NCBI RefSeq assembly: GCF_000227685.2
Contig: NZ_CP007029.1
Span: 306,047-338,046, forward strand
Direction: 5' to 3'
DNA length: 32,000 nucleotides
Origin: Thioalkalivibrio paradoxus ARh 1
GTDB taxonomy: Bacteria; Pseudomonadota; Gammaproteobacteria; Ectothiorhodospirales; Ectothiorhodospiraceae
The notes below the pieces were generated by a model, which worked only from the letters and a program-made list of their open reading frames with translations, had not been told where the DNA came from and ran no database searches. The position numbers were made by a program, and so were the translations under genes. Position 1 is the stretch's first letter, and each line of letters begins with the position of its first letter. Shown here piece after piece: positions 10,791 to 32,000 of this stretch.

Positions 10791-11834
<1,044 letters not shown>

Positions 11835-12307: not shown

Positions 12308-12337
12308 AACGTTCTGACAAGGTTCAAAGAAGTCACC

Positions 12338-12363: not shown

Positions 12364-12403
12364 ATGCCTGTAAGGTCGCAGGAGGTCCAGAGCGGTCGCT
12401 TGA

Positions 12404-12466
12404 GTTACCCCGAGGGATAGGGGTAACTTGTGGGGTAACTGGTCGAGCGGAAAAGGGAGTTACCCC
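12404..12466. promoter_or_regulatory. cluster of four GGGGTAAC/GTTACCCC motifs upstream of int (candidate arm-type sites)
   Basis: GTTACCCC 12404-12411 and 12459-12466; GGGGTAAC 12420-12427 and 12432-12439; same motif twice near attR (29813-29832). Confidence 0.45.
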
Positions 12467-12469
12467 ACT

Positions 12470-13699: not shown

Positions 13700-13781
13700 T
13701 TAGGAAGCACAGGTATTGCGAAACGGATAGGTAAAATAGTTTAGGGTCGTGGACACTCGCCTGATGTCGTGACAATAGTAT

Positions 13782-13813
13782 GGGTGTCGCCCACTCACAG
13801 CGAGGCGACACCC
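13782..13813. promoter_or_regulatory. 10-bp perfect inverted repeat abutting the alpA-like start
   Basis: GGGTGTCGCC (13782-13791), 12-nt spacer, GGCGACACCC (13804-13813); ATG at 13814. Confidence 0.35.
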
Positions 13814-14059
13814 ATGACCCACATGCAGACCCGTAGTGCCCCCCGCCCCACCGAGCAGCCGAGCCCGATCGGCGACCCTTTACTCCGGATGCCCGCAGTA
13901 CTCGCGGCGACCGGAATATCTCACAAAGCAACGATTTATGCGGCGATGGCCGCTGGCACGTTCCCGAGGCCGGTTCGGATCGGCTCGCGTGCTGTGGCGT
14001 GGCGATCGAGCGATATTGCGGCCTGGATCGCCACGCGCCCGGTTGCGGGTGATGAGTGA
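13814..14059 (+). CDS. alpA: AlpA-family HTH protein (excisionase/transcriptional regulator type)
   Basis: LLRMPAVLAATGISHKATIYAAMAAGTFPRPVRIGSRAVAWRSSDIAAWI matches the AlpA/prophage CP4-57 regulatory pattern; start uncertain (GTG 13769 or ATG 13814). Confidence 0.75.
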   Translation: MTHMQTRSAPRPTEQPSPIGDPLLRMPAVLAATGISHKATIYAAMAAGTFPRPVRIGSRAVAWRSSDIAAWIATRPVAGDE

Positions 14060-17923: not shown

Positions 17924-17965
17924 CCCGGACTTGGGCGCGACCGATGCAGCCACGACACCCTGGCC

Positions 17966-18217
17966 TGGACCACTTGGACCAAAAAAAGGCATTTTTAAAC
18001 AGCTACTTACGGTTGGTGGTCCAGGTGGTCCAGGTGGTCCAAAGAATTTCAAAAAGTATCCAAAGGCCCAGATTGGCCCCTGGGGGGAACAAGTTGGAAA
18101 AGTGCCCCGGATCTTGGACCACCTGGACCAGAAGCCCAGTTGGCCAGGAAAAACAACCACTTGTGGTGGTCCAGGTGCCTGGACCACACCTGGACCACCT
18201 GGACCACACCTGGACCA
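17966..18217. repeat. iteron block: 12 copies of TGGACCA/TGGTCCA (consensus ACCTGGACCAC) with AT-rich tracts; candidate replication origin
   Basis: TGGACCA at 17966, 17975, 18115, 18124, 18180, 18191, 18200, 18211; TGGTCCA at 18017, 18026, 18035 (9-bp phasing) and 18167; AT-rich 17981-18000 and 18041-18062. Confidence 0.7.
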
Positions 18218-18233
18218 CAACAGGAGGCATCCC

Positions 18234-18497
18234 ATGGGGACGATCCGCAGCCAGAGCCCACGCCACGAGATGAGCGCGCCGAGCCTGAACGACAGCATCC
18301 GCACGGTTTCCGCTGCGTGCGAATCCCAGGGGCTGGATGCTTCTCCAGACGCGAGGCTTGCCGCAGCCGTGGAGCTTTTCCGGCACGGTCACTGGATGAA
18401 TGACCGGGACACGCACGACGAACAGGCTGGCGGCATCGCTGACTGCCTGGATCGCATCGCTGCCGCTATCGAGCAGTTCAGCGGGGCGCCACCATGA
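18234..18497 (+). CDS. hypothetical protein (87 aa)
   Basis: ATG 18234 preceded by AGGAGG (18222-18227), immediately after the iteron block; no recognisable domain. Confidence 0.5.
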   Translation: MGTIRSQSPRHEMSAPSLNDSIRTVSAACESQGLDASPDARLAAAVELFRHGHWMNDRDTHDEQAGGIADCLDRIAAAIEQFSGAPP

Positions 18498-18582
18498 CCC
18501 GCCCGCCGCCGCTGTCCCCGTTCCGGAGAAACCCGTTCCGCCTGCGACCGCGCCGCAAGCCGGCGCCGAAGGAGTGACGACC

Positions 18583-18741
18583 ATGACACAGCAACGCGAC
18601 CTTTTCCGAGGCAAACCGGCCCGAAAGCCCCGCCGCCCCGGGAGCTACCGCCGGCAGGAGCCGCCGAGGACGCCCAGAGACACGGCTTGGGAGCTGCCCG
18701 AGGATTTCCAGCCGGCCGCAACGAGCAAGGAGGATCAGTGA
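18583..18741 (+). CDS. hypothetical small basic protein (52 aa)
   Basis: MTQQRDLFRGKPARKPRRP..., AAGGAG upstream, stop overlaps the next start; short, so uncertain. Confidence 0.3.
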   Translation: MTQQRDLFRGKPARKPRRPGSYRRQEPPRTPRDTAWELPEDFQPAATSKEDQ

Positions 18742-19145
18742 TGGGCGCGATGAGCCGAACGAAAGGAGCCGCGGGAGAACGCGAACTGCGCCGGTTGCTC
18801 GAGGCCGAGTTGGGACCGGGGATCAGCCGGAACCTGTCCCAGACCCGGGATGGTGGGCATGATCTGACCGGCGTCGGGCCGTTTGCCATCGAAGTGAAGC
18901 GCTACAAGCGGGCGACCGCTTCGATGCTGGCCGCGTGGTGGACGCAGGCTGAGGCTCAGGCGGAATCCGCCGGCCTACGTCCTGCCCTGGCCTGGCGCGA
19001 GGATCGCGCGCCCTGGCGCGTCCTGGTGCGCCTGGCGGACGTTCGGCCCGGGCTGGGACCGTGGCCCGGGATCGAGTGGACCGCCGCTGTTACGCTGCCC
19101 GCGTTCGCTGCGCTGGTGCGGGAAACGGGGAGGGCTGTCCGATGA
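18741..19145 (+). CDS. PD-(D/E)XK nuclease, Hjc-like Holliday-junction-resolvase type
   Basis: Start MGAMSRTKGAAGERELRRLLE at 18741 with AAGGAGG RBS; motif order KG..GE(R/E)...D(L)...IEVKR fits Hjc-like PD-(D/E)XK resolvases common in phages. Confidence 0.55.
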   Translation: MGAMSRTKGAAGERELRRLLEAELGPGISRNLSQTRDGGHDLTGVGPFAIEVKRYKRATASMLAAWWTQAEAQAESAGLRPALAWREDRAPWRVLVRLADVRPGLGPWPGIEWTAAVTLPAFAALVRETGRAVR

Positions 19146-20017
19146 CAGCACAGATTGCGCGCCTTGATGGGAGCGGAGGAACCGGCGTGAGCGACAAGAC
19201 CAGGGAGCGCAAGGCTGGGGAATTGTGGGCACGTGCATCACGGGACGTGGAGTCCGGAGATAGTTCCCTATGGCGCATCGCGCTGCACATTCAGCAAATG
19301 GTGGAAGGCGTGAGGGACTTCCCTGGTCCGCTGTGGCGAGACCGGGAGGTACCGCCAGACTGGAAGCGGGTGCATCTGGATCGCTTCGAGGATTACCTGT
19401 TGAAGCCGCCGCGGGAGGGGATTGGGGTGCCGTCCCTGCTGCGGCTGCACAACCACATGCAGGGGCACGACGAAGGCGAGCGTGCCATCGAGATCCTGCG
19501 TCGCGAGATCCCGGACTATGACGCCCGCATCCAGGCCGAGCGGATGCGGGCGGTGAAGCCGGTGGCCAGGCCGGGCGGTACCGGGGCGAACCAGCACACG
19601 GTTGATAAGAGCAAAGGTGCCAACGGCACATCTGCTCAGGTTAAGGCCCCCAAGCCGAGAGGTACCAATAGCCGCGACCACATCATCGGCCGCCTAAAGC
19701 GTGACGCGCGCGAGGATCCGAAGGCGAAGGAGGTGCTTGCCCGTGTGGAGAAAGGTGAGGTGAGCGCGCGAGCGGCTGGTATCGAGATGGGTTGGGTGAA
19801 GCCTGCGGATCCTGCGCGGATTGTCGAGAAGCAGGTGGAGCGGCTGAGCGACGACGAGGTCGTCGATCTCTACAAGAACCTCGCCAGATCCCTCCCCGAA
19901 GCCAAGTGGAACCACCTTGAGGCCGCCAAGGAAGCCGTCATGGCGCTGAGCGACGACGAGATGGCCGGGTTCGAGGCTTGGTACCGATCCTTGGCTGGCG
20001 TTGGGGGTGACCAGTGA
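19142..20017 (+). CDS. hypothetical DNA-binding-like protein (carries the GGTGANQ...RGTNSRDHIIGRLKRD...GEVSARAAGIEMG module)
   Basis: ATG 19142 (ATGA overlap); C-terminal module shared with ORFs at 24183 and 27115; family not identified. Confidence 0.6.
   Translation: MTAQIARLDGSGGTGVSDKTRERKAGELWARASRDVESGDSSLWRIALHIQQMVEGVRDFPGPLWRDREVPPDWKRVHLDRFEDYLLKPPREGIGVPSLLRLHNHMQGHDEGERAIEILRREIPDYDARIQAERMRAVKPVARPGGTGANQHTVDKSKGANGTSAQVKAPKPRGTNSRDHIIGRLKRDAREDPKAKEVLARVEKGEVSARAAGIEMGWVKPADPARIVEKQVERLSDDEVVDLYKNLARSLPEAKWNHLEAAKEAVMALSDDEMAGFEAWYRSLAGVGGDQ
19484..19704. repeat. 221-bp segment duplicated (diverged) at 27316-27536
   Basis: Same length in both copies; first ~42 bp differ at one position; encodes AIEILRREIPDYDARIQ...GGTGANQ...IIGRLKRD in both. 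Confidence 0.8.
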
Positions 20018-20196
20018 GCGCCCTGCTGAAACTGTTGCAAGCCGATACCGCGGTCGCCGAGGCCCGCGTGCTCGATGGCCGTCTTGTGGTGCGCATGACC
20101 CACCGGGCGCCGTCGGAGGACTGGACCCGAGTGGACCGGTTGATCGGCGAGTTCGCATCGAAACGAAAGCCCCGGCGCCGCCGTCGGGCTGCATGA
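20014..20196 (+). CDS. hypothetical protein (60 aa)
   Basis: GTG start in GTGA overlap with the upstream stop; Arg-rich tail. Confidence 0.4.
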   Translation: MSALLKLLQADTAVAEARVLDGRLVVRMTHRAPSEDWTRVDRLIGEFASKRKPRRRRRAA

Positions 20197-20214
20197 CCAA
20201 GGGAGACACGAGAC

Positions 20215-20655
20215 ATGAACCACGAAAGCCGCGTAGCGAAGGCGCTGCGCACCCTGGATGCCCCGGCCCGCCGGGCTCCGATCGTGTGGACCGGGGCGCG
20301 TATCCAGGAAGAGCTGGCGAAGGCATTGTTGCCGCTGGTCCGGAAACAGCGCCGCGAAGCGGAAGAGCGCACCTACCTGGAACGCGAGGCTCGGTTCCTC
20401 CGCGGAACAGACAGCCCGTTCCTGCAGGCGCGTCTGGCCAGGATCGAGGCCCGAATCGCTGAGATCGCACCACCGGAGCCGGAACCCACGCGGAGACAGC
20501 GCCGGGAGTATCGCAAGCGCCTGGCCGAAGAACTCGCCGACCTGCGCCGTCGAGCGGATCGCTTCGACCACGATCCTGCCTGGGCCGAGGTATTGGCCAG
20601 AGAGACGATTGCCGAGCGCCGCGCCCAGCTCGCGGAGAGCCGCCGCGCGTCGTGA
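20215..20655 (+). CDS. hypothetical coiled-coil protein (146 aa)
   Basis: ATG 20215; charged, helical composition; no recognisable domain. Confidence 0.5.
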   Translation: MNHESRVAKALRTLDAPARRAPIVWTGARIQEELAKALLPLVRKQRREAEERTYLEREARFLRGTDSPFLQARLARIEARIAEIAPPEPEPTRRQRREYRKRLAEELADLRRRADRFDHDPAWAEVLARETIAERRAQLAESRRAS

Positions 20656-20718
20656 TGCGACCATGGACCTGTACGACGTACCACGGTGCCGACGGGCGCC
20701 ATAACCGAGGACCGACCG

Positions 20719-21093
20719 ATGATGAACACCGATCCTTACGCGGAGCTCGACCGCCTCGTTTCCGAGTTTTCCAAGAGCGCTGTGCCCCCTGACCTGCCCG
20801 ACCGCCGACCATCGAGCAAGCAGTTCACCGACAGCAGCCGCCGGCTGCGCGACTACAACTCCGATCGCGAGTTGCAGCTTGAGCAGATCCGCCGTGATCG
20901 CCAGCAAATGAAGGCCGACTTCGAGGCTGGCAAGCTGGACCCGGCTGGCGTGATGCGCCGCGAGGTTGAGCTAAACCGGGCTGAGAACGCAGTCATGACG
21001 AAAGTTGCACCGCTGGTTGCTGCCGGTGCCCGGATGGCCGGTGCTGCCATGGCTGGGGCCGCTGCCTCGCCACCGCCGAGGGATCGGCACTGA
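20719..21093 (+). CDS. hypothetical protein (~124 aa)
   Basis: ORF 20686..21093, likely start MMNTDPYAELD at 20719; hydrophobic Ala/Gly-rich C-terminal segment. Confidence 0.45.
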   Translation: MMNTDPYAELDRLVSEFSKSAVPPDLPDRRPSSKQFTDSSRRLRDYNSDRELQLEQIRRDRQQMKADFEAGKLDPAGVMRREVELNRAENAVMTKVAPLVAAGARMAGAAMAGAAASPPPRDRH

Positions 21094-21314
21094 TGGCCCG
21101 CATCCACGGGCCGCGGCACCTGGAAGAACTGCTGCACACGGTCCGAAAGGTCCAGCGCAACCAGCAGGACATGATGAAGGCGCACGCAGCCCGGCGCCGC
21201 GCCCTGGGTGAGATGCTTCAGCGGCCCGGCGTGGACCCCATGGACGTTGCGCGCGCGGAGGTCGCCTTGAACCACGCGGCCCCGGTCCTGACGGTCCTGC
21301 GCCGCGACGGATGA
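21093..21314 (+). CDS. hypothetical protein (73 aa)
   Basis: TGATG overlap with the upstream stop; followed by a strong terminator. Confidence 0.45.
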   Translation: MARIHGPRHLEELLHTVRKVQRNQQDMMKAHAARRRALGEMLQRPGVDPMDVARAEVALNHAAPVLTVLRRDG

Positions 21315-21347
21315 CCCGAATTCTCGTGTCGGCTCCTGCCAGAGTTG

Positions 21348-21372
21348 CCCGGCCTCGTGCCGGGTTCTTTTT
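21348..21372 (+). terminator. rho-independent terminator
   Basis: CCCGGC-CTCGT-GCCGGG followed by TTCTTTTT. Confidence 0.7.
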
Positions 21373-21398
21373 GCCCGTTTCGGCCCGGGTTTTACCCC

Positions 21399-21447
21399 GT
21401 TTCGTATCGTATCGGAATACGTATTCGCCAATGCATGCGGATACGAA
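21399..21447. promoter_or_regulatory. nested inverted/direct repeats of CGTAT/ATACG (candidate operator)
   Basis: TTCGTATC (21401-21408) vs GATACGAA (21440-21447); CGTAT at 21403 and 21408; ATACG at 21417 and 21441; central ATGCAT; locally AT-richer. Confidence 0.35.
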
Positions 21448-21650
21448 GCAGCCCTGGGCAGGAAGGGTTCCCGTCTGGCGGCAGGCAGAAAAACGCCCCG
21501 CCTACATGAGCCTGACAGACGGGGCGACCCGCGTCGGAGACCGAGGAACCGGGCGGGCGGGGGCAGTGTAGTGTCACGCCGGTCTGGAGCGCTTCACAGC
21601 GCGCAGCGTGGTACGTTTGCAGCCATCGGAACACGGCCCAGGAGGCGGCC

Positions 21651-24134
21651 ATGAGCGACGTTCGATTTTCTGCAGATCCCAGCAGTGTCCTGCGCGCGAT
21701 GCAGGACATCCAGCGCGCGATCCAGCGCGCGGGACAGGAAGGCAAGGCCTTCTCCGAGATGGACCTGTCGCATCCGGAGTTGAAGGACCTGGAGCGCGAC
21801 ATGGCGCGGCTGCGTTCGAGCATGCTGGCGCTGCAGCGGATTTCCCCGGGAAGCCAGTTTGCGCGGGGGCTCAAGCAGTCCGGGCAAGCCGGGATGGACC
21901 CATGGGCGGTGGATTGGCGCCGTGCGTTTCCGGAGCAGCAGCAGCGGGACAAGGCGCTGCATCGGCTGGTGCAGGGATCCGGGCATGCCTACGGTGGCGA
22001 TGGCGGCCAGCGTCCGCCGGGTGGTGGTGGTTTCGCGGCGCCGATGGGTGGTTCGCTGGGGACGCTCGCACGCACGGCGCTGCCGATCGCGATGGGCGGT
22101 GGCCTCGTGGCCAGCCTGATGCGCGGGTTGCGTGAGGCCGACCAGACCAGCGAGGCCACCGATACCCTGATGCGTTACGACGAGCTGGGGCGCACATTCG
22201 ACGAACTGCGCGACAGCGTGACCGGGTTGCTGACCCAATTCGGGCTGGCCAATGCCGAGGCCGCCCGGCTGGCCGAGGGCTATGCGCGTGCTTCGGGCGA
22301 GGTGGAAGGCGCGACCGATGCGGTCAAGGATTCGGTGGCGCTGGCCCGCGGCCTGGGGATGAATGCCGAGGGCACGACGCGAGCGTTCGGCAGCCTGCAA
22401 TTCTCGGGCGTGTTCGATCGTCAGGACCGGCGCGAGTTCGCGACCATGCTGGCCGAGATGATCGGCCGGTCCGGCATGTATGCCCGCGGCGACGAACTCC
22501 TGGGCCAGGTGACGCGGATGGCGGATCGGGTGTGGGAGGCGACGCTCGAGGCGCCGAACACGCGGGCGATCATGGAAGCCTACTCGGCGATGTTCGACGT
22601 ATCGGCCGCGACCGGGAAAACCGCGCTGAAGGGTGGTGCCGGCGAACGCATCCTGGCCGCGGCCGATGCCGGGGTCCGCAACATCGGTGGCGGCGAGGCC
22701 GGCGAGTTCTTCATGTACCGGGCGCTGTCCGGGGTGACCGGCGACATCTACAAGCAGCGCTACCTGCGCGACTACGGCGCGTTCGGGACGCCTGGGCAGG
22801 CCTTCGGTGGCGACGACAATCGCACCCTGCTGCAGATCGTGATGGACCAGTTCCGGCGCGATGCCAAGAACCTGAACAACCCGTATGCGTCGTACTCGGC
22901 GCTGGGCGGGTTCTTCAACATATCCAGCCGGCAGGCCGAGGCCATGATGGCGGTGGACAAGCAGATGCGCCAGTCCGGCCTGGGCAACATGCAGTCGCTG
23001 CTGGAGCAGTCCGGCGTTGACCTGTCCGAGATGGACGCGTCGGGCCTGGGGCAGATCGCGAAGATCATCGAGGAAGCGCGCGCGGCCGGACCGGTGAACG
23101 TCGAGGACGTGGCGGATGCGATCCGGCGTGCGGCCGAGGAAGGGCGGATTCAGACCGTGGCGTCCGAATCGAACCGGGAAATGGCCCGCCTGTCCGACCA
23201 GCTCGAGCAACTGATGCGCGATGCACGCCCGTTGCTGACCAACCTGACGGGCTACCTCGCGGATGGGGTCGGCGTGGTGAACGATCTGATCGGAGAGATC
23301 AAGCAGGTCAACGAAAACCTCGCCTGGATCCGCAATCGACTGGGTTTCAGCCCGCTCCAGGCCCCGGAAGGGGTGCCCCCGGCGCAAAGCGCGATCATGG
23401 AGCAGATGATGCGCCTGCCGCTGTCGCTCTGGCAGGGTAGGCGCTCGGCGCTGGACTGGATGCGCGAGCGTTTCTCCCGGGAAGATAAGCCGGAGTCGTC
23501 CGAGCCAGAACCGTCTGGCGGCCTGGGCCGCATCGGCCCCGGGATCATCCCGTGGTCTGACCTGCACACGGTCGGGCCGGAGATCGGCTTGACCGATGGA
23601 ATCCCATCACGGGCCGCGATGGAGCGCGTGGATGCCCATTACAACCTGCCTCGGGGCACGATCTGGGCGCTGACCCGCACCGAGAGTAATCACGACCCGA
23701 ACGCCGTTTCCCATGCGGGTGCGATGGGGATCGCGCAGTTCATGCCGGGGACCGCCCGGGACATGGGCCTGAACGACCCGTTCGACCCGTATGCGTCGAT
23801 CGAAGCGGCCGGCCGCTACATGCGCCACCTGCTCGACCAGCCCTACATCCACACGCTGCAGGACGCTCTGGCTTCCTACAACGCAGGCCCCGGCAACTTC
23901 CGGGACCGCGGCGCCTACTACTGGCGCGAGCCCACCGAGCACCGGGAACGCTTCGAACGTCACTTCAGCGCCTACCAGCGCGACAACCCGGATCCGGTCA
24001 ATGTCGTGGTGCATGTGCATCCGCAACCGGACGGGCCGCCGGAGGTCGAGGTCGAGGTCGATGGCCGCGTCCGGGACACCAGCGTTGGCGAAGGCGCCTA
24101 CCACCTGAGCGACTTCGCGTTCGGGGCCGGCTGA
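21651..24134 (+). CDS. tape-measure-like protein with C-terminal lytic transglycosylase (SLT) domain
   Basis: 827 aa, RBS CAGGAGG; C-terminal SLT motifs (LTRTESNHDPNAVSHAGAMGIAQFMPGTA...ASYNAGPGN); Gly-rich and helical repeats in the N-terminal two thirds resemble phage tape-measure core regions. Confidence 0.7.
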   Translation: MSDVRFSADPSSVLRAMQDIQRAIQRAGQEGKAFSEMDLSHPELKDLERDMARLRSSMLALQRISPGSQFARGLKQSGQAGMDPWAVDWRRAFPEQQQRDKALHRLVQGSGHAYGGDGGQRPPGGGGFAAPMGGSLGTLARTALPIAMGGGLVASLMRGLREADQTSEATDTLMRYDELGRTFDELRDSVTGLLTQFGLANAEAARLAEGYARASGEVEGATDAVKDSVALARGLGMNAEGTTRAFGSLQFSGVFDRQDRREFATMLAEMIGRSGMYARGDELLGQVTRMADRVWEATLEAPNTRAIMEAYSAMFDVSAATGKTALKGGAGERILAAADAGVRNIGGGEAGEFFMYRALSGVTGDIYKQRYLRDYGAFGTPGQAFGGDDNRTLLQIVMDQFRRDAKNLNNPYASYSALGGFFNISSRQAEAMMAVDKQMRQSGLGNMQSLLEQSGVDLSEMDASGLGQIAKIIEEARAAGPVNVEDVADAIRRAAEEGRIQTVASESNREMARLSDQLEQLMRDARPLLTNLTGYLADGVGVVNDLIGEIKQVNENLAWIRNRLGFSPLQAPEGVPPAQSAIMEQMMRLPLSLWQGRRSALDWMRERFSREDKPESSEPEPSGGLGRIGPGIIPWSDLHTVGPEIGLTDGIPSRAAMERVDAHYNLPRGTIWALTRTESNHDPNAVSHAGAMGIAQFMPGTARDMGLNDPFDPYASIEAAGRYMRHLLDQPYIHTLQDALASYNAGPGNFRDRGAYYWREPTEHRERFERHFSAYQRDNPDPVNVVVHVHPQPDGPPEVEVEVDGRVRDTSVGEGAYHLSDFAFGAG

Positions 24135-24155
24135 CCAGTCCGTCATTCCCACCTG

Positions 24156-24183
24156 AGCCCCGGCACGTCCGGGGCTTTCTCGT
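24156..24183 (+). terminator. hairpin terminator candidate
   Basis: AGCCCCGG-CACGT-CCGGGGCT followed by TTCTCGTT (weak T tract). Confidence 0.45.
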
Positions 24184-24956
24184 TGTGGGCGGCCGACATC
24201 GCGGCGAGGGTTCAGGAGTTGCGCGAGCAGAACCCCGACGTCACCCAGCGGGAGATTGCGGAAAGCGCGGGGGTGACGCAACAAAGGGTGTCACAAGTAA
24301 TTACTTGTACCCCTGAGAAGAAGCAAGCCGAGTCGAAGCGCCTATCCGCCCGCCAGCTCTACCTGCCGAAGGATGCGGCGCAGGCGGCCGACATCGCGGC
24401 GAAGGTGCGGGAGATGAAGGAGCAGAACCCGGAGGCGACGCAGAGGGAGATTGCCGCCGAGGTTGGTATCAGTGATCGGCATGTGAGGCGGATCAATGAG
24501 GACACAACTGTGTCCGCTTCCCGCAAGGCCCGTAATTCCGCCAACACGACCGCCCGCCAGCTCTACCTGCCGAAGGATGCAGCGCAGGCGGCCGACATCG
24601 CGGCGAAGGTGCGGGAGGCTGCGGAGAATCCGTTGCGGGAAAGCACCGGCAGACCGGAAGGGAAGAATGTTGTTAATAACAACATTAGAGCGGGCAATCA
24701 TGACCAGACCTACACCCTTCGCCGCCTGGCCCGCGATAACCCGGAACTGCTGGACAAGGTAGAAGCCGGCGAACTGACAGCCAATGCCGCCGCGATCCAG
24801 GCCGGGTTCCGGAAACCTACCAAGACCATCCCGGTGGACTCGGCAGAATCTGCAGTCCGGGCACTGCTGCGCGTGTTCCTGGCGGCCGAAATCCAGGCCG
24901 CGATTACCGAGGACAAGGAGCCGAGCGCGGGGGCGGTGGCCCCGGATGTGTCGTGA
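24183..24956 (+). CDS. protein with three tandem HTH-like modules plus a YTLRRLARDNPELLDKVEAGELTANAAAIQAGF DNA-binding-like module
   Basis: TTG start per ORF track (no nearby ATG); modules ADIAA(R/K)V(Q/R)E..EQNP..TQREIA...G; contains a 68-bp near-exact in-frame duplication. Confidence 0.55.
   Translation: MWAADIAARVQELREQNPDVTQREIAESAGVTQQRVSQVITCTPEKKQAESKRLSARQLYLPKDAAQAADIAAKVREMKEQNPEATQREIAAEVGISDRHVRRINEDTTVSASRKARNSANTTARQLYLPKDAAQAADIAAKVREAAENPLRESTGRPEGKNVVNNNIRAGNHDQTYTLRRLARDNPELLDKVEAGELTANAAAIQAGFRKPTKTIPVDSAESAVRALLRVFLAAEIQAAITEDKEPSAGAVAPDVS
24346..24617. repeat. 68-bp direct repeat (24346-24413 and 24550-24617), one mismatch, 204-bp offset
   Basis: CCGCCCGCCAGCTCTACCTGCCGAAGGATGC(G/A)GCGCAGGCGGCCGACATCGCGGCGAAGGTGCGGGAG in both copies; offset of 68 codons keeps the frame. 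Confidence 0.9.
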
Positions 24957-25019
24957 CGGCAACCTCTCGTTACCGGGCTGGAATTCGCCAGAACCCGGTC
25001 AACCGAGGAAAAGACCGAG

Positions 25020-25763
25020 ATGCAGAACATGACCGAGAAAGCCCGCGATCGCGTGGCCGCGGCGCAAGCCGAACTGGACGAGGCCGTATCCCGTGGCGAG
25101 GACACGAGTTCGATCCGTGCGACGTTGGGCCTGGCCATCGAGGAACTGGACCGGGTCGAAGCCGAAACCGAGGCACAGGCTCGCGCGGCGGCCGGTGCCG
25201 CGCAGGATGCTGTTCGTGCCGACGCTGAGCGACTGGCGAACGAAGCCGCCGCAGAGATTCAGGATGTCGTGGACCGGGTGCTTACGATCTCGAAGCCCGA
25301 GGTCGAGGTGCCAGCGGATCGCGCGGTGGACCTGTTGCTGGCGCAACAGAAGGCCCAAGCCGAGGATTCCGCGATTCGGGCTCACCGCCACAAGGTCGGG
25401 GAGCTTCGGGAACGCCTTGAGCGCCTGAAGGCCGAGCGTGCCGAGATCGGACAGCGACGGGCTGCGGGTGATGAACGCCCCGACGATGCCGCGCGGGTCC
25501 ACCTGCTGGCGACGGATGCCGAAGCGCTGGAGGATCTGATCGCGCGAGTCGAAGCCGAAGCGCCGGCCCGGGACGAACTCGTGACCAAGGCGCTGCGCGA
25601 GTGGGAGCGCGGCTGGAACAACGCGGTCAAGGAGGTTCGCGTTCACGCGCTGGCGTTGACCTGCCAGCGTCTTGAACTGGCGTTGATGGCCGCGGCGACC
25701 GCGCACCGAGACGCCGGCGGTATTCGGCGCATGGACGCGCGGTTGGCGCAGTGGGTGCGGTGA
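25020..25763 (+). CDS. hypothetical coiled-coil protein (247 aa)
   Basis: Ala/Glu/Arg-rich helical composition; no recognisable domain. Confidence 0.5.
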   Translation: MQNMTEKARDRVAAAQAELDEAVSRGEDTSSIRATLGLAIEELDRVEAETEAQARAAAGAAQDAVRADAERLANEAAAEIQDVVDRVLTISKPEVEVPADRAVDLLLAQQKAQAEDSAIRAHRHKVGELRERLERLKAERAEIGQRRAAGDERPDDAARVHLLATDAEALEDLIARVEAEAPARDELVTKALREWERGWNNAVKEVRVHALALTCQRLELALMAAATAHRDAGGIRRMDARLAQWVR

Positions 25764-25966
25764 TGGCCGCCCCGACTGGACGCAAGCCTGGCCGACCGCG
25801 GAACCTCGGACGCCAAACGCGCCTGGCGCTGCATGATCGCCTGGCGCCTGAGATTCCTGGGCTCATTGAAGGCATGATCCGGCAGGCCAAGCTGGGCGAC
25901 TCGCGGGCGATCGCTTGGTGCCTGGACCGGGCGCTGGGGCCGGGTAGTCTGCCCGCCGATGGCTGA
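25763..25966 (+). CDS. small protein with AT-hook-like N-terminus (GRKPGRPR)
   Basis: ATG 25763 overlapping the upstream TGA; pattern ...IRQAKLGDSRAIAWCLDR resembles small phage packaging/regulatory proteins; tentative. Confidence 0.4.
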   Translation: MAAPTGRKPGRPRNLGRQTRLALHDRLAPEIPGLIEGMIRQAKLGDSRAIAWCLDRALGPGSLPADG

Positions 25967-26252
25967 TGAGCGGCCGGACCCGGAGGGCTGGCGTGTCACT
26001 GACCACGTGTGCCGGTACTGCCTTGGGCGCGTCCTGGAAGGCCAGCGGGAGGACGGCAGCATCGTTGCCCGCTGTGCCGACTGCGGAGCCCGCGGTGAGG
26101 GGCCGCACGACAGCGTATGCTTCTGCGGTGCGGCACTACCGAACGGCCGGCATGCTGGGCTGGCCTGCGTGCCGAACGAGAATCCGACCCCGGAGCGCTC
26201 GGCTGAGGTTGTGGTGATCTACGTTGGGGAGGATGTGCGATGCCGAGGTTGA
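25959..26252 (+). CDS. Cys-rich zinc-ribbon-like protein (97 aa)
   Basis: CRYC...CADC plus CFC...C spacing; overlaps neighbours on both sides. Confidence 0.45.
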   Translation: MADERPDPEGWRVTDHVCRYCLGRVLEGQREDGSIVARCADCGARGEGPHDSVCFCGAALPNGRHAGLACVPNENPTPERSAEVVVIYVGEDVRCRG

Positions 26253-26815
26253 CGAAAGACGAGTGGGCCGAGGCGCGCGCCCTGCGGGAAGGGGCCGGGT
26301 TGCCGTTCTCGGAGATCGCCGAGCGGATGGGCGTGGACCGTGCCGCAGTGTCCCGCCGAGCGAAGAAGGAACAGTGGGACGACGGGCAGAATGTCGCCGT
26401 AGCCATCCAGAAGAAAGTCACGGAAAAGCTCACGCGGATAGTCACGCCGAGTGACCCGGTAAAAAAGGCCGAAGCCATCGACGCCGAGGCCGCCCGCCGG
26501 GCTGGAGTGATCGACAAGCACCGGGACGAACTCGAGGCCGCGCGGGTGATGGCCCGGGCCGCGAAGGAGAACCACCAGAACGTTGGGGACCAGATTCCCG
26601 CGGACATCCACGATCCGATGGAGCGGGCGCAGGCTCTGCTGTCCATGAAGCGCGGTGCCTTCGAGGACCTGAAGGCCGCGAAGATCCACGTTGAGACCCT
26701 GAAGCTGATTCAGGAGGGCGAGCGCAAGGCCTGGGGGCTGGATATGCCGGTGGACCTGAGTGCATTGACCGACGAGCAGCTTGCAGCGCTGGCATCCGGG
26801 CGGATGCCGGTCTGA
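26240..26815 (+). CDS. HTH protein resembling Mu gp27/DUF1804-type small terminase subunit
   Basis: N-terminus LTKDEWAEARALREGAGLPFSEIAERMGVDRAAVSRRAKKEQWDDG fits the Mu-like gp27 pattern from memory; helical C-terminus ending ERKAWGLD. Confidence 0.45.
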   Translation: MPRLTKDEWAEARALREGAGLPFSEIAERMGVDRAAVSRRAKKEQWDDGQNVAVAIQKKVTEKLTRIVTPSDPVKKAEAIDAEAARRAGVIDKHRDELEAARVMARAAKENHQNVGDQIPADIHDPMERAQALLSMKRGAFEDLKAAKIHVETLKLIQEGERKAWGLDMPVDLSALTDEQLAALASGRMPV

Positions 26816-26821
26816 AGGAGC

Positions 26822-27022
26822 CTACCCGAAGTCTCCCTCTCGGTCCTGGGCGGGCTTCCCGCCCTCGGTGCCCCCCGGCTGCTTCACCTTCGAGAGTTCC
26901 GCGTCGATGCGCCGGTCTACCTCGGCAACGTCCACCCCGTAGTCCTCGGGGTCGACCTGGCCCATGATCTCCTTCATGCGCCGGTCCACGCTCTCGCTGA
27001 TACTGTCGATTGAGCCGCCCAT
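26822..27022 (-). CDS. hypothetical acidic protein (66 aa); only minus-strand gene in the element
   Basis: GGAGG RBS 5 nt upstream of the ATG; convergent with the TerS-like gene (6 bp between stops). Confidence 0.5.
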   Translation of the reverse strand: MGGSIDSISESVDRRMKEIMGQVDPEDYGVDVAEVDRRIDAELSKVKQPGGTEGGKPAQDREGDFG

Positions 27023-27114
27023 GGCTACCTCCGTCTGTCCGGTCCGTCCACCTTAATTGTAGGTTCTACCGGGATTCCGTGCCGTTTCCGGTGCGTTTCG
27101 TCGGGCTGGGAGCG

Positions 27115-27645
27115 ATGGCCCGCCGTGATACCAGACCCCCGATCCAGCGGGAGCGGGCCAAGGCCGGTGCCGAGAAGGCGAGGGCGAATCCTCTGGATAG
27201 CCACGGCGGAGACCGGAAAGGGGATCAAGGTTCGGGCCGAACCTTGAAGCCCAAGCGAGGGGAGAACCGCGACTACATCCTGTCCAGGCTGGCCCGGGAG
27301 GCGAAAGGCGGTGATGCCATCGAGATTCTGCGTCGCGAGATCCCGGACTATGACGCCAGGATCCAGCGGGAGCGGACGGCTGCGGTGAAGCCGGCGGCCA
27401 AGCATGGCGGGACCGGGGCGAACCAGTACACAGGCGAGGAGAGCAAACCTGACAATGTAAGGTCTGCTACTCCTGACCCCAAGCCCAAGGGTTACGGCAA
27501 CAGCAAGGACTACATCATCGGCCGCCTGAAGCGTGATTCGCGTCTCAATGGAGAAGCCTCGGGGCGAACCAATACACGGTCAATCAGAGCAAAGCTGATA
27601 ATATCAACTTTGCTTGTGCCAGTGAGCCAATGCCAGAAAGGGTGA
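27115..27645 (+). pseudogene. truncated/decayed paralog of the 19142-20017 gene
   Basis: Shares AIEILRREIPDYDARIQ..GGTGANQ..IIGRLKRD but then runs into AT-richer, non-homologous sequence; lacks the C-terminal domain of the full copy. Confidence 0.5.
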
Positions 27646-27820
27646 AAACAGCAGTGACAATGTAACGGCTGTTTCCCGGCGAGCCTAAGACCCGGGCGCG
27701 AACGGAGAGGAAAACAAAGCTTATAAAATAACCTTTGTTTCCATGCCCAAGCCCTGATGGTGGGAAAGGGAAGCGGCCGAAAGTTGGCTAAGCCCCGAGG
27801 GTAGGAAAGGCAAAGGAACT

Positions 27821-27880
27821 AAAGGTGCCAATGGCACAGTTAGTTCCGGGCGGGCAACCAAGCCGAGAGGTACCAACAGC
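27821..27880. repeat. third fragment of the same paralogous module
   Basis: AAAGGTGCCAATGGCACA...AAGCCGAGAGGTACCAACAGC matches 19613-19672; no intact ORF around it. Confidence 0.6.
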
Positions 27881-27987
27881 AAGAACAGCGAGCCGGTACC
27901 GTACCGACCGGGAACGCCCGCGTTGACCTGGCTACCGTCCTGGCCGATCCTTCCCGTACCCACCAACAGCCAGCGAGGGAACGCGCC

Positions 27988-28167
27988 ATGCTCGTACTGA
28001 CCCGCCGTGTCGGCGAAACGCTCATCATCGGCGACGAGATCGCCGTCACCATCCTGGACGTGAAGGGCAATCAGGCCCGCGTCGGCATCGAGGCGCCCAA
28101 GGACGTGACCATCCTCCGCGAGGAACTGAGGGACCGGCCGGCCCCGGCTGTGCGCAACGCCCGCTGA
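27988..28167 (+). CDS. csrA: carbon storage regulator CsrA/RsmA homolog (59 aa; below the ORF-track length cutoff)
   Basis: My translation: [59 protein letters not shown]; near-canonical CsrA signature (MLxLxRRxGE...VKGNQVRIGIxAPK...REE). Confidence 0.85.
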
Positions 28168-28192
28168 ACGTCCGTTCGGCCGGCCTGGGTAT

Positions 28193-28218
28193 CCCAGACG
28201 GAACCTGCTGGGTTTTCT
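28193..28218 (+). terminator. weak terminator candidate after csrA
   Basis: CCCAG-ACGGAACCTG-CTGGG followed by TTTTCT; the loop contains GGA. Confidence 0.3.
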
Positions 28219-28241
28219 GAGCGAGCAACCTGCCCTGGCGA

Positions 28242-28273
28242 GGGCAAGGCACTGCCTGGACGGTGCCTTGCCC
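28242..28273 (+). other. 11-bp perfect stem-loop with GGA in the loop
   Basis: GGGCAAGGCAC-TGCCTGGACG-GTGCCTTGCCC; no T tract after it. Confidence 0.5.
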
Positions 28274-28359
28274 GGTCGCGTGCGGGCGGTCGATACCGCT
28301 GGCATTCCTTTCAACCCGGTGCCATACTCCAATCAGAGGGCACGATTCAGGAGGCGGCA

Positions 28360-28536
28360 ATGCCGCGAGGTGGTAAGCGTCCGGGAGCAGGCAGGAAATC
28401 GCTGCCGGAGGACGTGAAGAAGCACAAGATCACGGTTCGGCTGAAGCGCGAGGCGGTTGAGTGGTTACGCGAGCAGCCGGTGAGCCAGGGACAGGCCATC
28501 GAGGACCTGATCGAAGGAGCACGCAGGAAGGAGTAG
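28360..28536 (+). CDS. ribbon-helix-helix (CopG/Arc-like) DNA-binding protein (58 aa; not in ORF track)
   Basis: My translation: MPRGGKRPGAGRKSLPEDVKKHKITVRLKREAVEWLREQPVSQGQAIEDLIEGARRKE; RBS CAGGAGG; beta-strand/helix/helix pattern typical of RHH. Confidence 0.55.
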   Translation: MPRGGKRPGAGRKSLPEDVKKHKITVRLKREAVEWLREQPVSQGQAIEDLIEGARRKE

Positions 28537-28612
28537 AGAAACGCCCGAGCCGAGCGGGGGCAACCGCAAGGCCCGGACTTCCCACGACGGAACACCTATG
28601 GAGGCCACCGTC

Positions 28613-28813
28613 ATGAGCACAGCAAGTCTAGCAGTCCGTCCACGTTCCGTGGACGCATCCCCCGAAGCCCATCCCGGTATCCGCTGGTGGAACAGCCTGC
28701 CCGAGTCCGAGCGCAAGGACTGGCTGAAGCTGGCCAACAGCGCCGTGCCGGCCGATGCCTGGAAACTCCGGAACCAGTTGATGACCGGGATCCACGGGAG
28801 GGACGCGGCATGA
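28613..28813 (+). CDS. hypothetical protein (~66 aa)
   Basis: ORF 28598..28813; ATG 28613 preceded by GGAGG. Confidence 0.4.
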   Translation: MSTASLAVRPRSVDASPEAHPGIRWWNSLPESERKDWLKLANSAVPADAWKLRNQLMTGIHGRDAA

Positions 28814-29079
28814 ACGCCCGCATCCGCCTGGCGCGCGCCTATCGGCATGGGTTCAGTCGTGGCTGGTTGAACCTCAGCATGGACCCACCGCGCTCGTTGC
28901 GCCTGACCGACACCGAGGCCACCGTCTACCGCGATGGCTGGGAATCCGGCCGCAGGGAGCGCCTGGAGATCCCGGTGGCGTTCCAGGTTCGTAGGGTCGC
29001 CACGTTCGCACCCGCAGCAAAAGCGCCCAGTCCCAGCGGTAGCACCCGCCCGGACCGGACTTCCCACACGGCAACCTGA
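28810..29079 (+). CDS. hypothetical protein (89 aa)
   Basis: ATGA overlap with the upstream stop; MNARIRLARAYRHGFSRGW... Confidence 0.4.
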   Translation: MNARIRLARAYRHGFSRGWLNLSMDPPRSLRLTDTEATVYRDGWESGRRERLEIPVAFQVRRVATFAPAAKAPSPSGSTRPDRTSHTAT

Positions 29080-29095
29080 GAAGGAGGAAGCCGAC

Positions 29096-29284
29096 ATGAG
29101 CACGAGCGAGCATACCGCAACCCCGCGGATCGACCCGATCAACGCCCTCTGGGCTCGCATCTACGAGGTCCGCGACCGATTCTATGCCGCGGTCGACGAC
29201 CTGGACGTTCAAGCAGCCACCGAGCAGCGCATCCGCGCCGACGAACTCTACCAGGCCATCCGGACCCTGCGGGGTGCCGCATGA
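29096..29284 (+). CDS. hypothetical acidic protein (62 aa)
   Basis: ATG 29096 preceded by GAAGGAGGA. Confidence 0.45.
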   Translation: MSTSEHTATPRIDPINALWARIYEVRDRFYAAVDDLDVQAATEQRIRADELYQAIRTLRGAA

Positions 29285-29535
29285 ACGCCCTGCGCCTGGA
29301 AGCGGTGCCCACCGGCACGGACGAGTTCGAGCAGGCGTATCACCAGGCTATGGGCCGCATCACAGCGCTGACCGGGATCGTCGGCACCCTGGCCCGCGCG
29401 ACCGCCCATAGCCCCGGTGGCGACGATGGCGAAACCTCGGACGCCTGCGCGCTCTACTGGCACCTGCGCGACGAACTCGAATCCCTGAGCCTGGAAGTGC
29501 AGGAGCTTTCGCGTAGGCGTCACGATCCGGGCTGA
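29281..29535 (+). CDS. hypothetical acidic protein (84 aa)
   Basis: ATGA overlap with the upstream stop; followed by a strong terminator. Confidence 0.45.
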   Translation: MNALRLEAVPTGTDEFEQAYHQAMGRITALTGIVGTLARATAHSPGGDDGETSDACALYWHLRDELESLSLEVQELSRRRHDPG

Positions 29536-29566
29536 CCTGCTGCCGCTGATCCCGCCGCCCTACCGA

Positions 29567-29591
29567 CCCCGGCCGCTGTGCCGGGGTTTTT
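29567..29591 (+). terminator. rho-independent terminator
   Basis: CCCCGGC-CGCTGT-GCCGGGG followed by TTTTT. Confidence 0.75.
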
Positions 29592-29611
29592 CGTGGGTGG
29601 GGGCTCTTGCC

Positions 29612-29702
29612 GGTTCCCCCGGTTCCCCCGCCGGGGAACCCTTGGGGAACCGGAAAACCCCAATTAAATCAACGAGGTTCCCCCGGTTCCCCCGGTTCCC
29701 CC
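29612..29702. repeat. second iteron block: GGTTCCCCC x5 direct, GGGGAACC x2 inverted, AT-rich centre
   Basis: GGTTCCCCC at 29612, 29621, 29676, 29685, 29694 (9-bp phasing); GGGGAACC at 29633 and 29644; CAATTAAATCAA at 29661-29672. Confidence 0.75.
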
Positions 29703-29812
29703 GGAAAAACATCGACCCCGAGCGTATCCGGACCGGGCTCCGAGGGTTCAGAATTCGCAGCCGGGGCGCGAGGGTCCGCGAGCGCGGCAGGCTGGGTACC
29801 AGGGAAATCGGA

Positions 29813-29832
29813 GGGGTAACAAGAGGGGTAAC
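29813..29832. promoter_or_regulatory. two direct GGGGTAAC motifs (candidate arm-type integrase sites, attR side)
   Basis: GGGGTAAC at 29813-29820 and 29825-29832; same 8-mer as the four copies upstream of int. Confidence 0.45.
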
Positions 29833-29900
29833 AGATTTTCTTGGTCTCTCACAAAGGTATTGTTATCAATGTGTTGCCGTGGGTTTTCGGTGGAGTCCCG

Positions 29901-29911
29901 GGCCACCATTT
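29901..29911. repeat. attR core (direct repeat GGCCACCATTT)
   Basis: Exact copy of 12297-12307, preceded by a degenerate T-arm-like sequence (GGTTTTCGGTGGAGTCCCG). Confidence 0.75.
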
Positions 29912-29941
29912 CACCTTCCAGCAAGGCCCAAAGAAGTACCC

Positions 29942-29966
29942 AAGCCGCTGAAAAAGCGGCTTTTTT
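29942..29966 (+). terminator. duplicate of the tRNA-Phe terminator hairpin
   Basis: AAGCCGCT-GAAAA-AGCGGCTT plus a T run, as at 12338-12363. Confidence 0.6.
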
Positions 29967-30074
29967 GTGCCCTGCAGTATCGCAAGAGGTCTAAAGCGGG
30001 CGTTCGAGTTACCCCGAGTGAGAGGGATAACTTCCGGGGTAATACGTCGACCCGGAAAAGGGGTTAGCCCGCTA

Positions 30075-30302
30075 CAGCCACTCACCGACGCCGAAACCCG
30101 CGCTCTGAAGCCCGGGAAGCGCCCGGTCAAACGCTTCGATGAGAATGGGCCGTACCTCGGGGTGCCGCTGTCCGGATCGTTGCGCTGACGGTTCGGCTAC
30201 AAGTCTGCTGGCAAGTCGAAACTCATGAGCCAGGGGACCTTTCCCGATGTCCGCAGCGAAGGCGGCCCGGGGATGAGGCCCACCGCCCCCTCGATCGGCC
30301 CG
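30075..30302 (+). pseudogene. N-terminal remnant (~76 codons) of a second P4-type integrase
   Basis: Aligns to int codons 1-~76 (LTDAETRALKPGKRPVKRFDENG...); start codon replaced by CAG (30075), Trp codon replaced by TGA (30186-30188); homology ends at the CRISPR array. Confidence 0.8.
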
Positions 30303-31207
30303 GCTTCAATTCCACCCCGGCGTTTGGCCGGGGATCACGTAAACGCGATGGGGCCGGCGGCGTAGGGGGTGCCGGGCTTCAATTCCACCCCGGCGTTTGG
30401 CCGGGGATCACCTGGTTTTCCTGCGGCGCGGCGTCGGCGGTTGCAACGCTTCAATTCCACCCCGGCGTTTGGCCGGGGATCACCTGATGGCGCTGCTGCC
30501 CACCGCCGCGGCAGCCGCCGGGCTTCAATTCCACCCCGGCGTTTGGCCGGGGATCACCTGCGTGAACACGGCGAGCCGGAACCTGGTGTGGGAGCTTCAA
30601 TTCCACCCCGGCGTTTGGCCGGGGATCACCAGCACGGCTGCACTGTCGATTCCGAGGGCAAGCGCTGGCTTCAATTCCACCCCGGCGTTTGGCCGGGGAT
30701 CACAGCACGTCGCCCGGCACCTCTTCGCCGCGCCCCAGGCTTCAATTCCACCCCGGCGTTTGGCCGGGGATCACGTTCAGCCGGCTGAGCGCCGCGGGCC
30801 AGCTCGCCGGGCTTCAATTCCACCCCGGCGTTTGGCCGGGGATCACGTCGCCCTTGGCCTGCAGCTGCGTCATCGCTTCGGTGCTTCAATTCCACCCCGG
30901 CGTTTGGCCGGGGATCACGCTGTTCGCGCGGGTCCCAATAGCGGAAGTAGCGCTGGCTTCAATTCCACCCCGGCGTTTGGCCGGGGATCACACGATGGCG
31001 CGGACGGGTGCGAAATCTACGCGCTCGGGCTTCAATTCCACCCCGGCGTTTGGCCGGGGATCACATGACCTCGGTGCCGCCCAGGCCTGATGCTTTCTTG
31101 CTTCAATTCCACCCCGGCGTTTGGCCGGGGATCACCACGCCGCCGCGGAGGCGTTCGCGGCCGGTCGCGATGCTTCAATTCCACCCCGGCGTTTGGCCGG
31201 GGATCAC
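30303..31207 (-). CRISPR. CRISPR array: 13 identical 36-bp repeats, 12 spacers (35-38 bp)
   Basis: Repeat (+ strand) GCTTCAATTCCACCCCGGCGTTTGGCCGGGGATCAC at 30303, 30376, 30448, 30522, 30594, 30668, 30739, 30811, 30883, 30956, 31029, 31100, 31172. The minus-strand reading GTGATCCCCGGCCAAACGCCGGGGTGGAATTGAAGC ends in ATTGAAGC, so minus-strand transcription is inferred. Confidence 0.95.
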
Positions 31208-31384
31208 AGCCCTCTCGTGGACCCGCGTTGGTGCTGGGCCAGCGACGGCTTTTTCGAGCGCTCGGTCTGTCGCGGCCGTTCTGCGGGTCGTACGCGATCA
31301 GGATACGGCATACAGCACGATGATCTCCATGATTTCTCAGCGAAAACATAGTTGCGAGCGCTCCCCAGGGCTGGCGGCATCACG
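31208..31384 (-). promoter_or_regulatory. probable CRISPR leader
   Basis: 177-bp noncoding stretch between the cas gene stop and the first repeat in the inferred transcription direction; locally AT-richer (GATGATCTCCATGATTTCTCAGCGAAAACATAG). Confidence 0.4.
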
Positions 31385-32000
31385 TCACCGCTCGAAAGCC
31401 GCGAGCAGACCGAGCCCCCAACCCGATCCGGCGCCGAGAACGATCGGTCCCGCGACTGGTTGGTGAAACTCGATCGTCACATAGGACCGCGGGTACTTCT
31501 GCAGGTGCCTGGGCACAAGGAATCGCCCGCGTCCGGCCAGCCCGTGAATGCGTGGGTACGGATGCAGATGGACCGCTCGCACGGACTCCTGCGGGATGCC
31601 CGCGTGTTGCAGCAGGCGGCGGGCCGTGCGTGCGGGGCGTGGCTTGCCGCGGCGGCTGTCGTAGCCGGGGAGAATCACGGGGGTTACCGCCGTCCATGTC
31701 GTCGCCGGCGCCAGGAATCGCCGCAGAACGGAATCCCCTTGTCGTTCCGCGATCGGCAGCAGGACCGCCGAAGCATCTATATCACCCTCGGCCGTGAGTT
31801 CCGAGTGGCCGAGCCGCAGTTGCAGCCCGTGCCAGTGCTCGGCGCTCACCGCCGGGCTGGGCGCCACCAGCACGCGGCGTACCCGGCCGTCGGCCCAGCG
31901 GTGCCCCGCATTCGGTACCGGCAGGATCGCAACCCGGCCGTCGCCTCCGTGGCCCATGAGTTCGGTGATGGCGGCTGCATCGAGCCCCGCCCGCTGCGCG
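31385..32000 (-). CDS. RAMP-superfamily Cas protein, C-terminal part (Csb2/Cas5-Cas6-like, possibly type I-G/I-U); partial, runs off the window
   Basis: Frame stays open upstream of the listed Met to the window edge; C-terminal glycine-rich RAMP loop (GPIVLGAGSGWGLGLL); adjacent to the leader; subtype assignment rests on memory of Csb2-like C-termini and the ATTGAAGC repeat end. Confidence 0.5.
   Translation of the reverse strand, partial: AQRAGLDAAAITELMGHGGDGRVAILPVPNAGHRWADGRVRRVLVAPSPAVSAEHWHGLQLRLGHSELTAEGDIDASAVLLPIAERQGDSVLRRFLAPATTWTAVTPVILPGYDSRRGKPRPARTARRLLQHAGIPQESVRAVHLHPYPRIHGLAGRGRFLVPRHLQKYPRSYVTIEFHQPVAGPIVLGAGSGWGLGLLAAFER

Follow-up and report, generated by a model that had tools for sequence, protein, structure and literature searches.

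Why should the DNA that follows a tRNA gene recur downstream in a diverged and shortened form that ends against a CRISPR array? The 32-kb stretch of the Thioalkalivibrio paradoxus ARh 1 genome analysed here (hereafter the window; 66.8% G+C) raises this question at its only tRNA gene, tRNA-Phe(GAA) at 12229-12304 on the plus strand (ARAGORN; Rfam tRNA model, 71 bits), which is the integration target and contributes its 3' end as attL. The left 12 kb of the window is housekeeping backbone (yicC, hsp20, dnaJ, degP, moaE/thiS/moaC, asmA, mutY and yggX), and the T. paradoxus ARh 1 genome paper leaves the locus unmentioned. Our analysis leads us to read the recurring segment, 29912-30302, as the left end of an older tRNA-Phe island that became fused to the array in an ancestor shared with Thioalkalivibrio nitratireducens, with a related island arriving later and the spacers turning over since; we put the probability of this account as a whole at roughly three in four (about 0.75).

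The duplicated flank of tRNA-Phe

The tRNA-Phe 3' fragment is present in exactly two copies in the window by pattern search, namely the 16-nt attL core TCCCTGGCCACCATTT at the gene itself (12292-12307, plus strand) and the attR core TCCCgGGCCACCATTT, a displaced tRNA-Phe 3' fragment at 29896-29911 on the plus strand. This single recurrence of the tRNA 3' end sets the bounds of an apparently intact integrative island of about 17.6 kb (12308-29900, plus strand; Pfam domains and gene calls on an identical Logan contig). The two cores lie in direct orientation and differ at one position, on the island side of the crossover, and their perfect shared block is GGCCACCATTT, found at 12297-12307 and again from 29901. 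Because the attR copy has an island-type G to the left of GGCCACCATTT and chromosome-type bases, matching those of T. nitratireducens, to its right, the crossover falls inside the core, as site-specific integration predicts. An intact tRNA gene with a direct copy of its 3' fragment, an adjacent tyrosine integrase and an unoccupied site in a relative together identify the 17.6-kb element as a tDNA island.

The island encodes a P4-type integrase, AlpA, a PIF1/AAA_30 helicase, a primase zinc ribbon with DUF5906, an SLT-domain protein of 827 aa and HTH proteins. The integrase gene (12470-13699, plus strand) is intact and specifies 409 aa with Arm-DNA-bind_3, Phage_int_M and Phage_integrase domains (Pfam); gene calling on the Logan contig predicts it as well, and the viral contig collection yielded no relative of the protein. 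Between the regenerated tRNA and the integrase lies a terminator-like hairpin with a T-run (12338-12364, plus strand), the hairpin AAGCCGCTGAAAAAGCGGCTT followed by a T-run being called at 12338-12358 and a second time at 29942-29962. Four exact GGGGTAAC motifs, in the forms GGGGTAAC/GTTACCCC, are spread over both strands between attL and the integrase start (12404-12466; minus strand at 12404 and 12459, plus strand at 12420 and 12432), and two more stand at the right end of the island, 70-95 nt left of attR (29813-29832, plus strand). All seven exact copies in the 32-kb window are at island ends (4 + 2, and 1 in the flank of the old stub); with one mismatch allowed, the window holds 28 matches against 15.5 expected. 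This placement is the layout expected of arm-type integrase-binding sites, and we regard the motifs as putative sites of this kind, with the right-end pair probably serving the other arm.

Several repeats occur inside the new island. Near its right end an iteron-like cluster at 29609-29704 comprises GGTTCCCCC twice, inverted GGGGAACC twice, the AT-rich AAAACCCCAATTAAATCAAC and GGTTCCCCC three times, and may serve the element as an origin of replication or as an array that binds a protein. A duplicate of about 240 nt (19473-19710 and 27305-27542) is 80% identical between copies 7.8 kb apart, tandem units of about 200 nt lie within an HTH-protein gene (24188-24617), and the arms of a perfect 21-nt inverted repeat, GTGGTCCAGGTGGTCCAGGTG, are located 150 nt apart at 18016-18036 and 18187-18207.

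The initial annotation described 29912-30302 as a diverged copy of 12308 to about 12700, and alignment bears this out, with 77-80% identity over about 390 nt (MAFFT, blastn) and a blastn E value of 9e-80 for 29886-30254 against 12282-12649. Both flanks contain the hairpin, GGGGTAAC-type motifs and the integrase N-terminus, as the same annotation had proposed. The first part of the copy (29912-30074, plus strand) is the left flank of the older island, in which the hairpin that first served tRNA-Phe as terminator (29942-29962) is followed by degraded arm-type motifs, one exact at 30008 and three with one mismatch each at 30024, 30036 and 30063. This part is 82% identical to the T. nitratireducens sequence 3' of tRNA-Phe and 77% identical to the new island.

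The remainder (30075-30302, plus strand) is an integrase pseudogene stub of about 76 codons from the arm-binding domain, cut at about codon 76 of 409. As first noted, its start ATG has become CAG (30075) and a Trp codon has become TGA (30186-30188), so that 30075-30302 translates as QPLTDAETRALKPG...SLR*RF.... Compared with the intact gene, it also has a +1 insertion near 30256, following GTCCGC, and lacks 8 nt near 30272. Significant homology, at 79% nucleotide identity, combined with these disabling lesions establishes it as an integrase pseudogene, and an Rfam search of the stub returned no match. The claim that homology runs to 30302 holds in part: the stub reaches up to the repeat, but integrase sequence is secure only to about 30292-30298 (..ARDEAHxLLDR). 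The intact gene reads ..ARDDARDLLRKGIDP at this point, and the final 4-10 nt before the repeat are not firmly integrase. A likeness between GGCCCGGGGATGAG (30264-30277, inside the stub) and the 3' side of the CRISPR repeat led us to consider a hidden degenerate repeat there; the sequence is instead integrase-derived, since T. nitratireducens and the intact gene both read ..ARDEA.. there.

The corresponding locus in T. nitratireducens

The comparison that dates the duplicated flank comes from T. nitratireducens DSM 14787 (CP003989.2; L083), which was reached through a 171-aa Csb2 fragment and is the one close relative on which the junction comparison rests. The backbone of the window is syntenic with that of the sister species and 86% identical over 9.9 kb, and the tRNA-Phe genes are 100% identical. 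In the sister locus the order is yggX, tRNA-Phe, stub, a degenerate repeat, one spacer, a 13-nt partial repeat and the interior of csb2. The 17.6-kb island is absent from this syntenic site, and tRNA-Phe runs directly into the same terminator hairpin, decayed arm motifs and an integrase stub orthologous to that of the window, supporting the earlier proposal that a related island had previously occupied tRNA-Phe. The T. nitratireducens stub reads ..GCTACAGCCACTCAC.. in place of the ATG and ends ..GATGAGGCCCACGGCCTTCTCGATCGGCCGG, after which GCCTTCGATTCCACCCCGGCGCTGAGCCGGGGATCAC follows; this last element is the CRISPR repeat with 4-5 of its 36 positions changed, adjoining the stub as the repeat does in the window.

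Stub against stub, the two species are 86.8% identical (341/393, gaps excluded; window 29912-30302 against sister-locus positions 10585-10993), and the stubs show 77% (77.3%) and 81.5% identity to the new island. On these figures the two stubs are mutual closest relatives. Directly to the right of the attR core, the window copy likewise groups with T. nitratireducens, not with the new island. Both stubs have lost the start codon (ATG to ACAG), carry the +1 (mod 3) insertion after GTCCGC and are truncated at the repeat. Other lesions are private to one lineage, the TGA codon and the 8-nt deletion belonging to the window and insertions of +5, +2 and +3 to T. nitratireducens. The junction, the lost start and the frameshift being common to both species, the fusion of integrase and CRISPR array predates the species split.

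These observations also bear on whether a second island is needed at all. One could suppose that the flank is a long target duplication, or a block of attP/attB identity, arising from the single 17.6-kb insertion, and the copies do point the same way and lie exactly on either side of the island, as such an origin would have them. The copies are only 77-79% identical, however, the right one holds part of an integrase reading frame, and the unoccupied T. nitratireducens site already has the stub; we therefore give this explanation next to no credence. A new insertion beside an old stub makes the flank look duplicated, and the two copies are then the left ends of two homologous islands. The absence of the island from T. 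nitratireducens could also, though less parsimoniously, reflect precise excision instead of later arrival in the window lineage.

The older island can be placed in time from the other side as well. At tRNA-Phe in outgroup Thioalkalivibrio lineages there is no stub, no integrase and no such repeat, from which it follows that the clade gained the older island on its stem. The scan of the genome collection used MutY, for which the closest match was 68% identical, and among the fetched loci no locus but that of T. nitratireducens carries the stub. Metagenome scans gave 0 matches for the junction TCGATCGGCCNGGCNTTCNATTCCACC and 0 for the repeat.

Beyond the stub, the T. nitratireducens region is a CRISPR-Cas relic (sister-locus positions 10306-10585), in which only the 171-aa csb2 fragment is left, beside a Tle1-like gene and an IS21 fragment. 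Across the csb2 part that both species retain, codon positions 1/2/3 are 93/97/78% identical, a pattern which indicates that purifying selection acted on csb2 through most of the period after the species separated and which suggests that CRISPR-Cas was lost from T. nitratireducens fairly recently.

The CRISPR array and its outer boundary

The structure against which the stub ends is an array on the minus strand at 30303-31207, with its trailer end at 30303. It consists of 13 identical 36-nt repeats (GCTTCAATTCCACCCCGGCGTTTGGCCGGGGATCAC, zero mismatches; first 30303-30338, last 31172-31207; GTGATCCCCGGCCAAACGCCGGGGTGGAATTGAAGC when read on the minus strand) and 12 unique spacers of 35-38 nt, and with repeats that are identical, evenly spaced and in direct orientation, and spacers that are all different but alike in length, it is identified as a CRISPR array. 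Further along the minus strand lies the 3' part of csb2 (31385-32000; PF09609, E = 1.3e-11), which runs past the window end and matches profile positions 331-551 of 552 of the Cas_GSU0054 family above the gathering cut-off (Pfam). This gene marks the locus as a probable type I-G (formerly I-U) system.

Repeats of this group usually end, at their 3' side, in ATTGAAGC. The 3' end of the window repeat on the minus strand is ATTGAAGC, csb2 reads toward the array, and the same order of csb2, leader and array recurs in L100, the locus of the nearest Csb2 relative (48% identity), where csb2, about 180 nt and an array follow one another on one strand with a similar repeat (..CCCCGGCGTTCTGCCGGGGTGTCGTTGAAGG). 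The placement of the stub at the trailer end, which had been part of the first description, thus finds agreement from all three directions. Because the array is read on the minus strand, the roughly 177 nt from the csb2 stop to the first repeat (31208-31384, minus strand) would be the leader, as position and composition suggest, and the stub lies on the trailer side. No cas1, cas2 or cas4 stands in the roughly 177 nt between csb2 and the array; adaptation genes must sit elsewhere or be missing.

The best Csb2 relatives in the protein collection, at L099 (10001-11044) and L100 (10001-12245), have 47-48% identity and are truncated fragments beside transposase genes; neither locus has an intact cas operon. 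For the window's own csb2, the protein collection contained no matching protein of that genome, and the gene may be annotated as a pseudogene. None of the spacers has a match in the window or in any fetched locus, so that the new island is not self-targeted, and the whole array gave no match against phage and plasmid collections.

The repeat abutting the stub (30303-30338) is, as originally described, identical to the other 12, and the window contains no degenerate trailer repeat. From this it had been argued that a deletion or recombination starting in the integrase reached inside the array and took the degenerate trailer repeat and the older spacers with it. The last 4-10 nt of the stub could, on this view, be the end of a former spacer. 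The argument from the perfect repeat is weakened by two arrays: the sister species has the same junction with an abutting repeat that is degenerate at 4-5 of 36 positions, and the array in L100, the closest related one, with at least 18 repeats, also ends in a perfect repeat. There is in addition no long microhomology between the integrase break point and the repeat. We consider a cut into the array interior unlikely and prefer a fusion of the stub to the trailer-end repeat. Inspection of the break showed only TCGA..CCA common to the repeat start and the integrase sequence past the break, and a role for long microhomology was dismissed on that ground.

The initial annotation had looked to relatives for a full second island or additional spacers on the trailer side. 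T. nitratireducens supplied the shared junction, but neither a full second island nor a shared trailer spacer, and the comparison of spacers across species left no trailer-end spacer by which to follow the array, which points to later turnover between repeats. No spacer is common to the two species, including the one beside the stub, and at least one of the arrays has therefore lost its oldest units. When repeats recombine with one another, the downstream repeat retains its boundary, and collapse of an array followed by refilling has been documented (PMC8047081). For the combination of 13 identical repeats and no shared spacer, normal turnover in an array that was being maintained is accordingly the best explanation.

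The stub ends 0-10 nt from the edge of the repeat, for which we estimate a chance of about 1/7 to 1/30 per 72-nt unit. For a random deletion this end point would be a mild coincidence, and we do not think that a special mechanism is needed to account for it; the original deletion may conceivably have ended a few bases inside a former spacer. We also considered birth of the array by ectopic spacer integration within the integrase gene and rejected it, the leader side facing csb2 and not the remaining integrase.

A separate question is where the array itself came from. The type I-G CRISPR-Cas locus could have been cargo of the older tRNA-Phe island, a reading that is compatible with our main account, differs from it in the origin of the array, and strikes us as possible without being the favoured one. 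Many outgroup lineages keep a conserved housekeeping set 0.3-6 kb past tRNA-Phe (class II glutamine amidotransferase, aldolase II, phosphomannomutase, NrdJ and a TonB-dependent receptor), and this set is absent within 10 kb in T. nitratireducens, where the 10 kb are of accessory type: besides what is left of csb2, they contain genes for a Tle1-like lipase and a HepT toxin and an IstB fragment of IS21. Such a flank indicates that the array lies in inserted DNA, which fits an origin as cargo, as does the lack of a close Csb2 relative elsewhere (best 48%), expected of a horizontally acquired module; integrase-bearing islands with CRISPR-Cas are moreover known in Vibrio (PMC6360697). Against these points, the 10 kb to the right of the T. 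nitratireducens stub contain no older attR with up to 3 mismatches allowed in 16 nt, and the outgroups differ among themselves at the site, so that the ancestral right flank of the clade is uncertain. In the window, no tRNA-Phe fragment occurs after 29911.

The tRNA-Phe site is a general insertion hot spot. In the outgroup loci L084, L101-L105, L108 and L111 the inserts just past tRNA-Phe differ, comprising a group II intron reverse transcriptase, a 344-aa ORF with no known domain and a roughly 6-kb block containing radical-SAM and LplA genes; the conserved flank comes after them.

Probable serial use of the site and conservation of the stub

The two genomes show directly that the flank is duplicated, that the copy carries lesions, that both species have the junction and that the sister site is empty; our preferred account arranges these observations as serial use of one tRNA-Phe gene. 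An older island would have left its left end at the gene, consisting of the tRNA terminator, arm-type sites and the first ~76 codons of its P4-type integrase. Before T. paradoxus and T. nitratireducens separated, a deletion would have joined this remnant to the repeat at the trailer end of a type I-G array, and the stub would then have been carried along as a pseudogene. Later, in the window lineage, a related 17.6-kb island would have entered the GGCCACCATTT core of the same tRNA-Phe by site-specific recombination, setting its own terminator, arm sites and integrase beside the tRNA and shifting the old stub and the array 17.6 kb downstream. Spacers would have turned over as spacer-repeat units dropped out when repeats recombined or slipped, or as the array collapsed to one repeat and refilled, a course that makes all its repeats uniform; either route leaves the outer edge of the last repeat in place.

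How the deletion came about, in what order the ancestral events fell and how the spacers turned over are our reconstruction from these data. A full-length older integrase or cargo of the older island was found in no genome, and the deletion itself is for this reason something we infer.

One aspect of the stub is not anticipated by this account. Between the species the stub is 87% identical, against 74% for backbone third codon positions (n=2721) and 82% for intergenic DNA. With the new island as outgroup, 31 substitutions are private to the window stub and 13 to that of T. nitratireducens; in the ex-coding part the counts are 16 and 3, and 2 of the latter 3 are synonymous. Backbone third-position changes are symmetric between the lineages (246 against 259). 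The private changes of the window stub are mostly non-synonymous and have accumulated at about the synonymous rate of the backbone genes, as in a neutral pseudogene. Conservation at 87% together with so few changes in T. nitratireducens is not what neutral decay in both lineages would predict; possible reasons for the slow T. nitratireducens stub include gene conversion by a paralogous integrase, recombination with new-type islands, a local mutation rate or constraint.

Constraint would imply that the stub has been kept for a function, whether as the 3' end or terminator region of the pre-crRNA or as the source, if only temporarily, of a short arm-binding peptide that interferes with related islands. 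The 87% identity, set against 74% at third positions and 82% in intergenic DNA, would be in keeping with this, as would the mere 3 private substitutions in the T. nitratireducens ex-coding part, 2 of them synonymous, and the position of the stub against the array in both species. Yet no reading frame is conserved, with four indels between the species, a stop in one and the start lost in both, an Rfam match is absent, the window copy decays in a roughly neutral and mostly non-synonymous manner, and the counts are small. Retention for function is in our judgement highly improbable. A combined version, in which CRISPR-Cas was cargo of the older island, was locked in by the fusion of integrase and repeat, and has kept the stub as a functional trailer that forms the transcript end, appears quite unlikely to us. 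If it were true, cargo together with a functional trailer would account for a stub better conserved than synonymous sites and for its place next to the repeat in each of the two species.

Serial occupation of a single tDNA is common, with 125 tandem arrays among the 3919 islands in Islander (PMC4383910). The locus resembles the tandem and serial islands of that collection with P4-family tyrosine integrases in having an intact tRNA beside the integrase, a displaced 3' tRNA fragment at the far end, a second related integrase directly after that fragment and an empty site in a relative. It differs in that the older member has shrunk to about 390 bp with no cargo and no distal tRNA fragment in view. 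Islander requires of each tandem member an integrase and a tDNA fragment; the older member here, with an integrase stub only, would fall short of that rule.

Cryptic P4-like prophages of enterobacteria leave integrase pseudogene remnants beside tRNA genes. The stub matches these remnants as a truncated, start-less and frameshifted integrase N-terminus that sits by a tRNA and is vertically inherited, and departs from them in that its truncation is fused to a terminal CRISPR repeat and conserved in two species. At the trailer end, a degenerate terminal repeat in one species and a homogeneous array in the other, with the boundary unchanged, recall the dynamics described in PMC8047081, although turnover here is deduced from two genomes. 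The setting of a cas locus and array beside integrase sequence, in a variable zone at a tRNA site, is similarly reminiscent of the Vibrio CRISPR-Cas islands (PMC6360697), from which it is set apart by an integrase that is dead and truncated and by a far-side island boundary that was not found.

Taken together, the locus represents an ordinary case in which successive islands used one tRNA site and the first left a decaying remnant, a new and tidy example of known processes that implies no new mechanism. It carries two lessons for annotation: a perfect last repeat is by itself no evidence that an array has been truncated, and a duplicated att flank can be the ends of two homologous islands and not a true duplication. 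For the biology of this clade it offers a clean and dated case of tRNA hot-spot reuse, in which an older island was reduced to a 390-bp stub before the species split and a related island came in later, and in which the adjacent CRISPR array exchanged all its spacers within an unchanged outer boundary.
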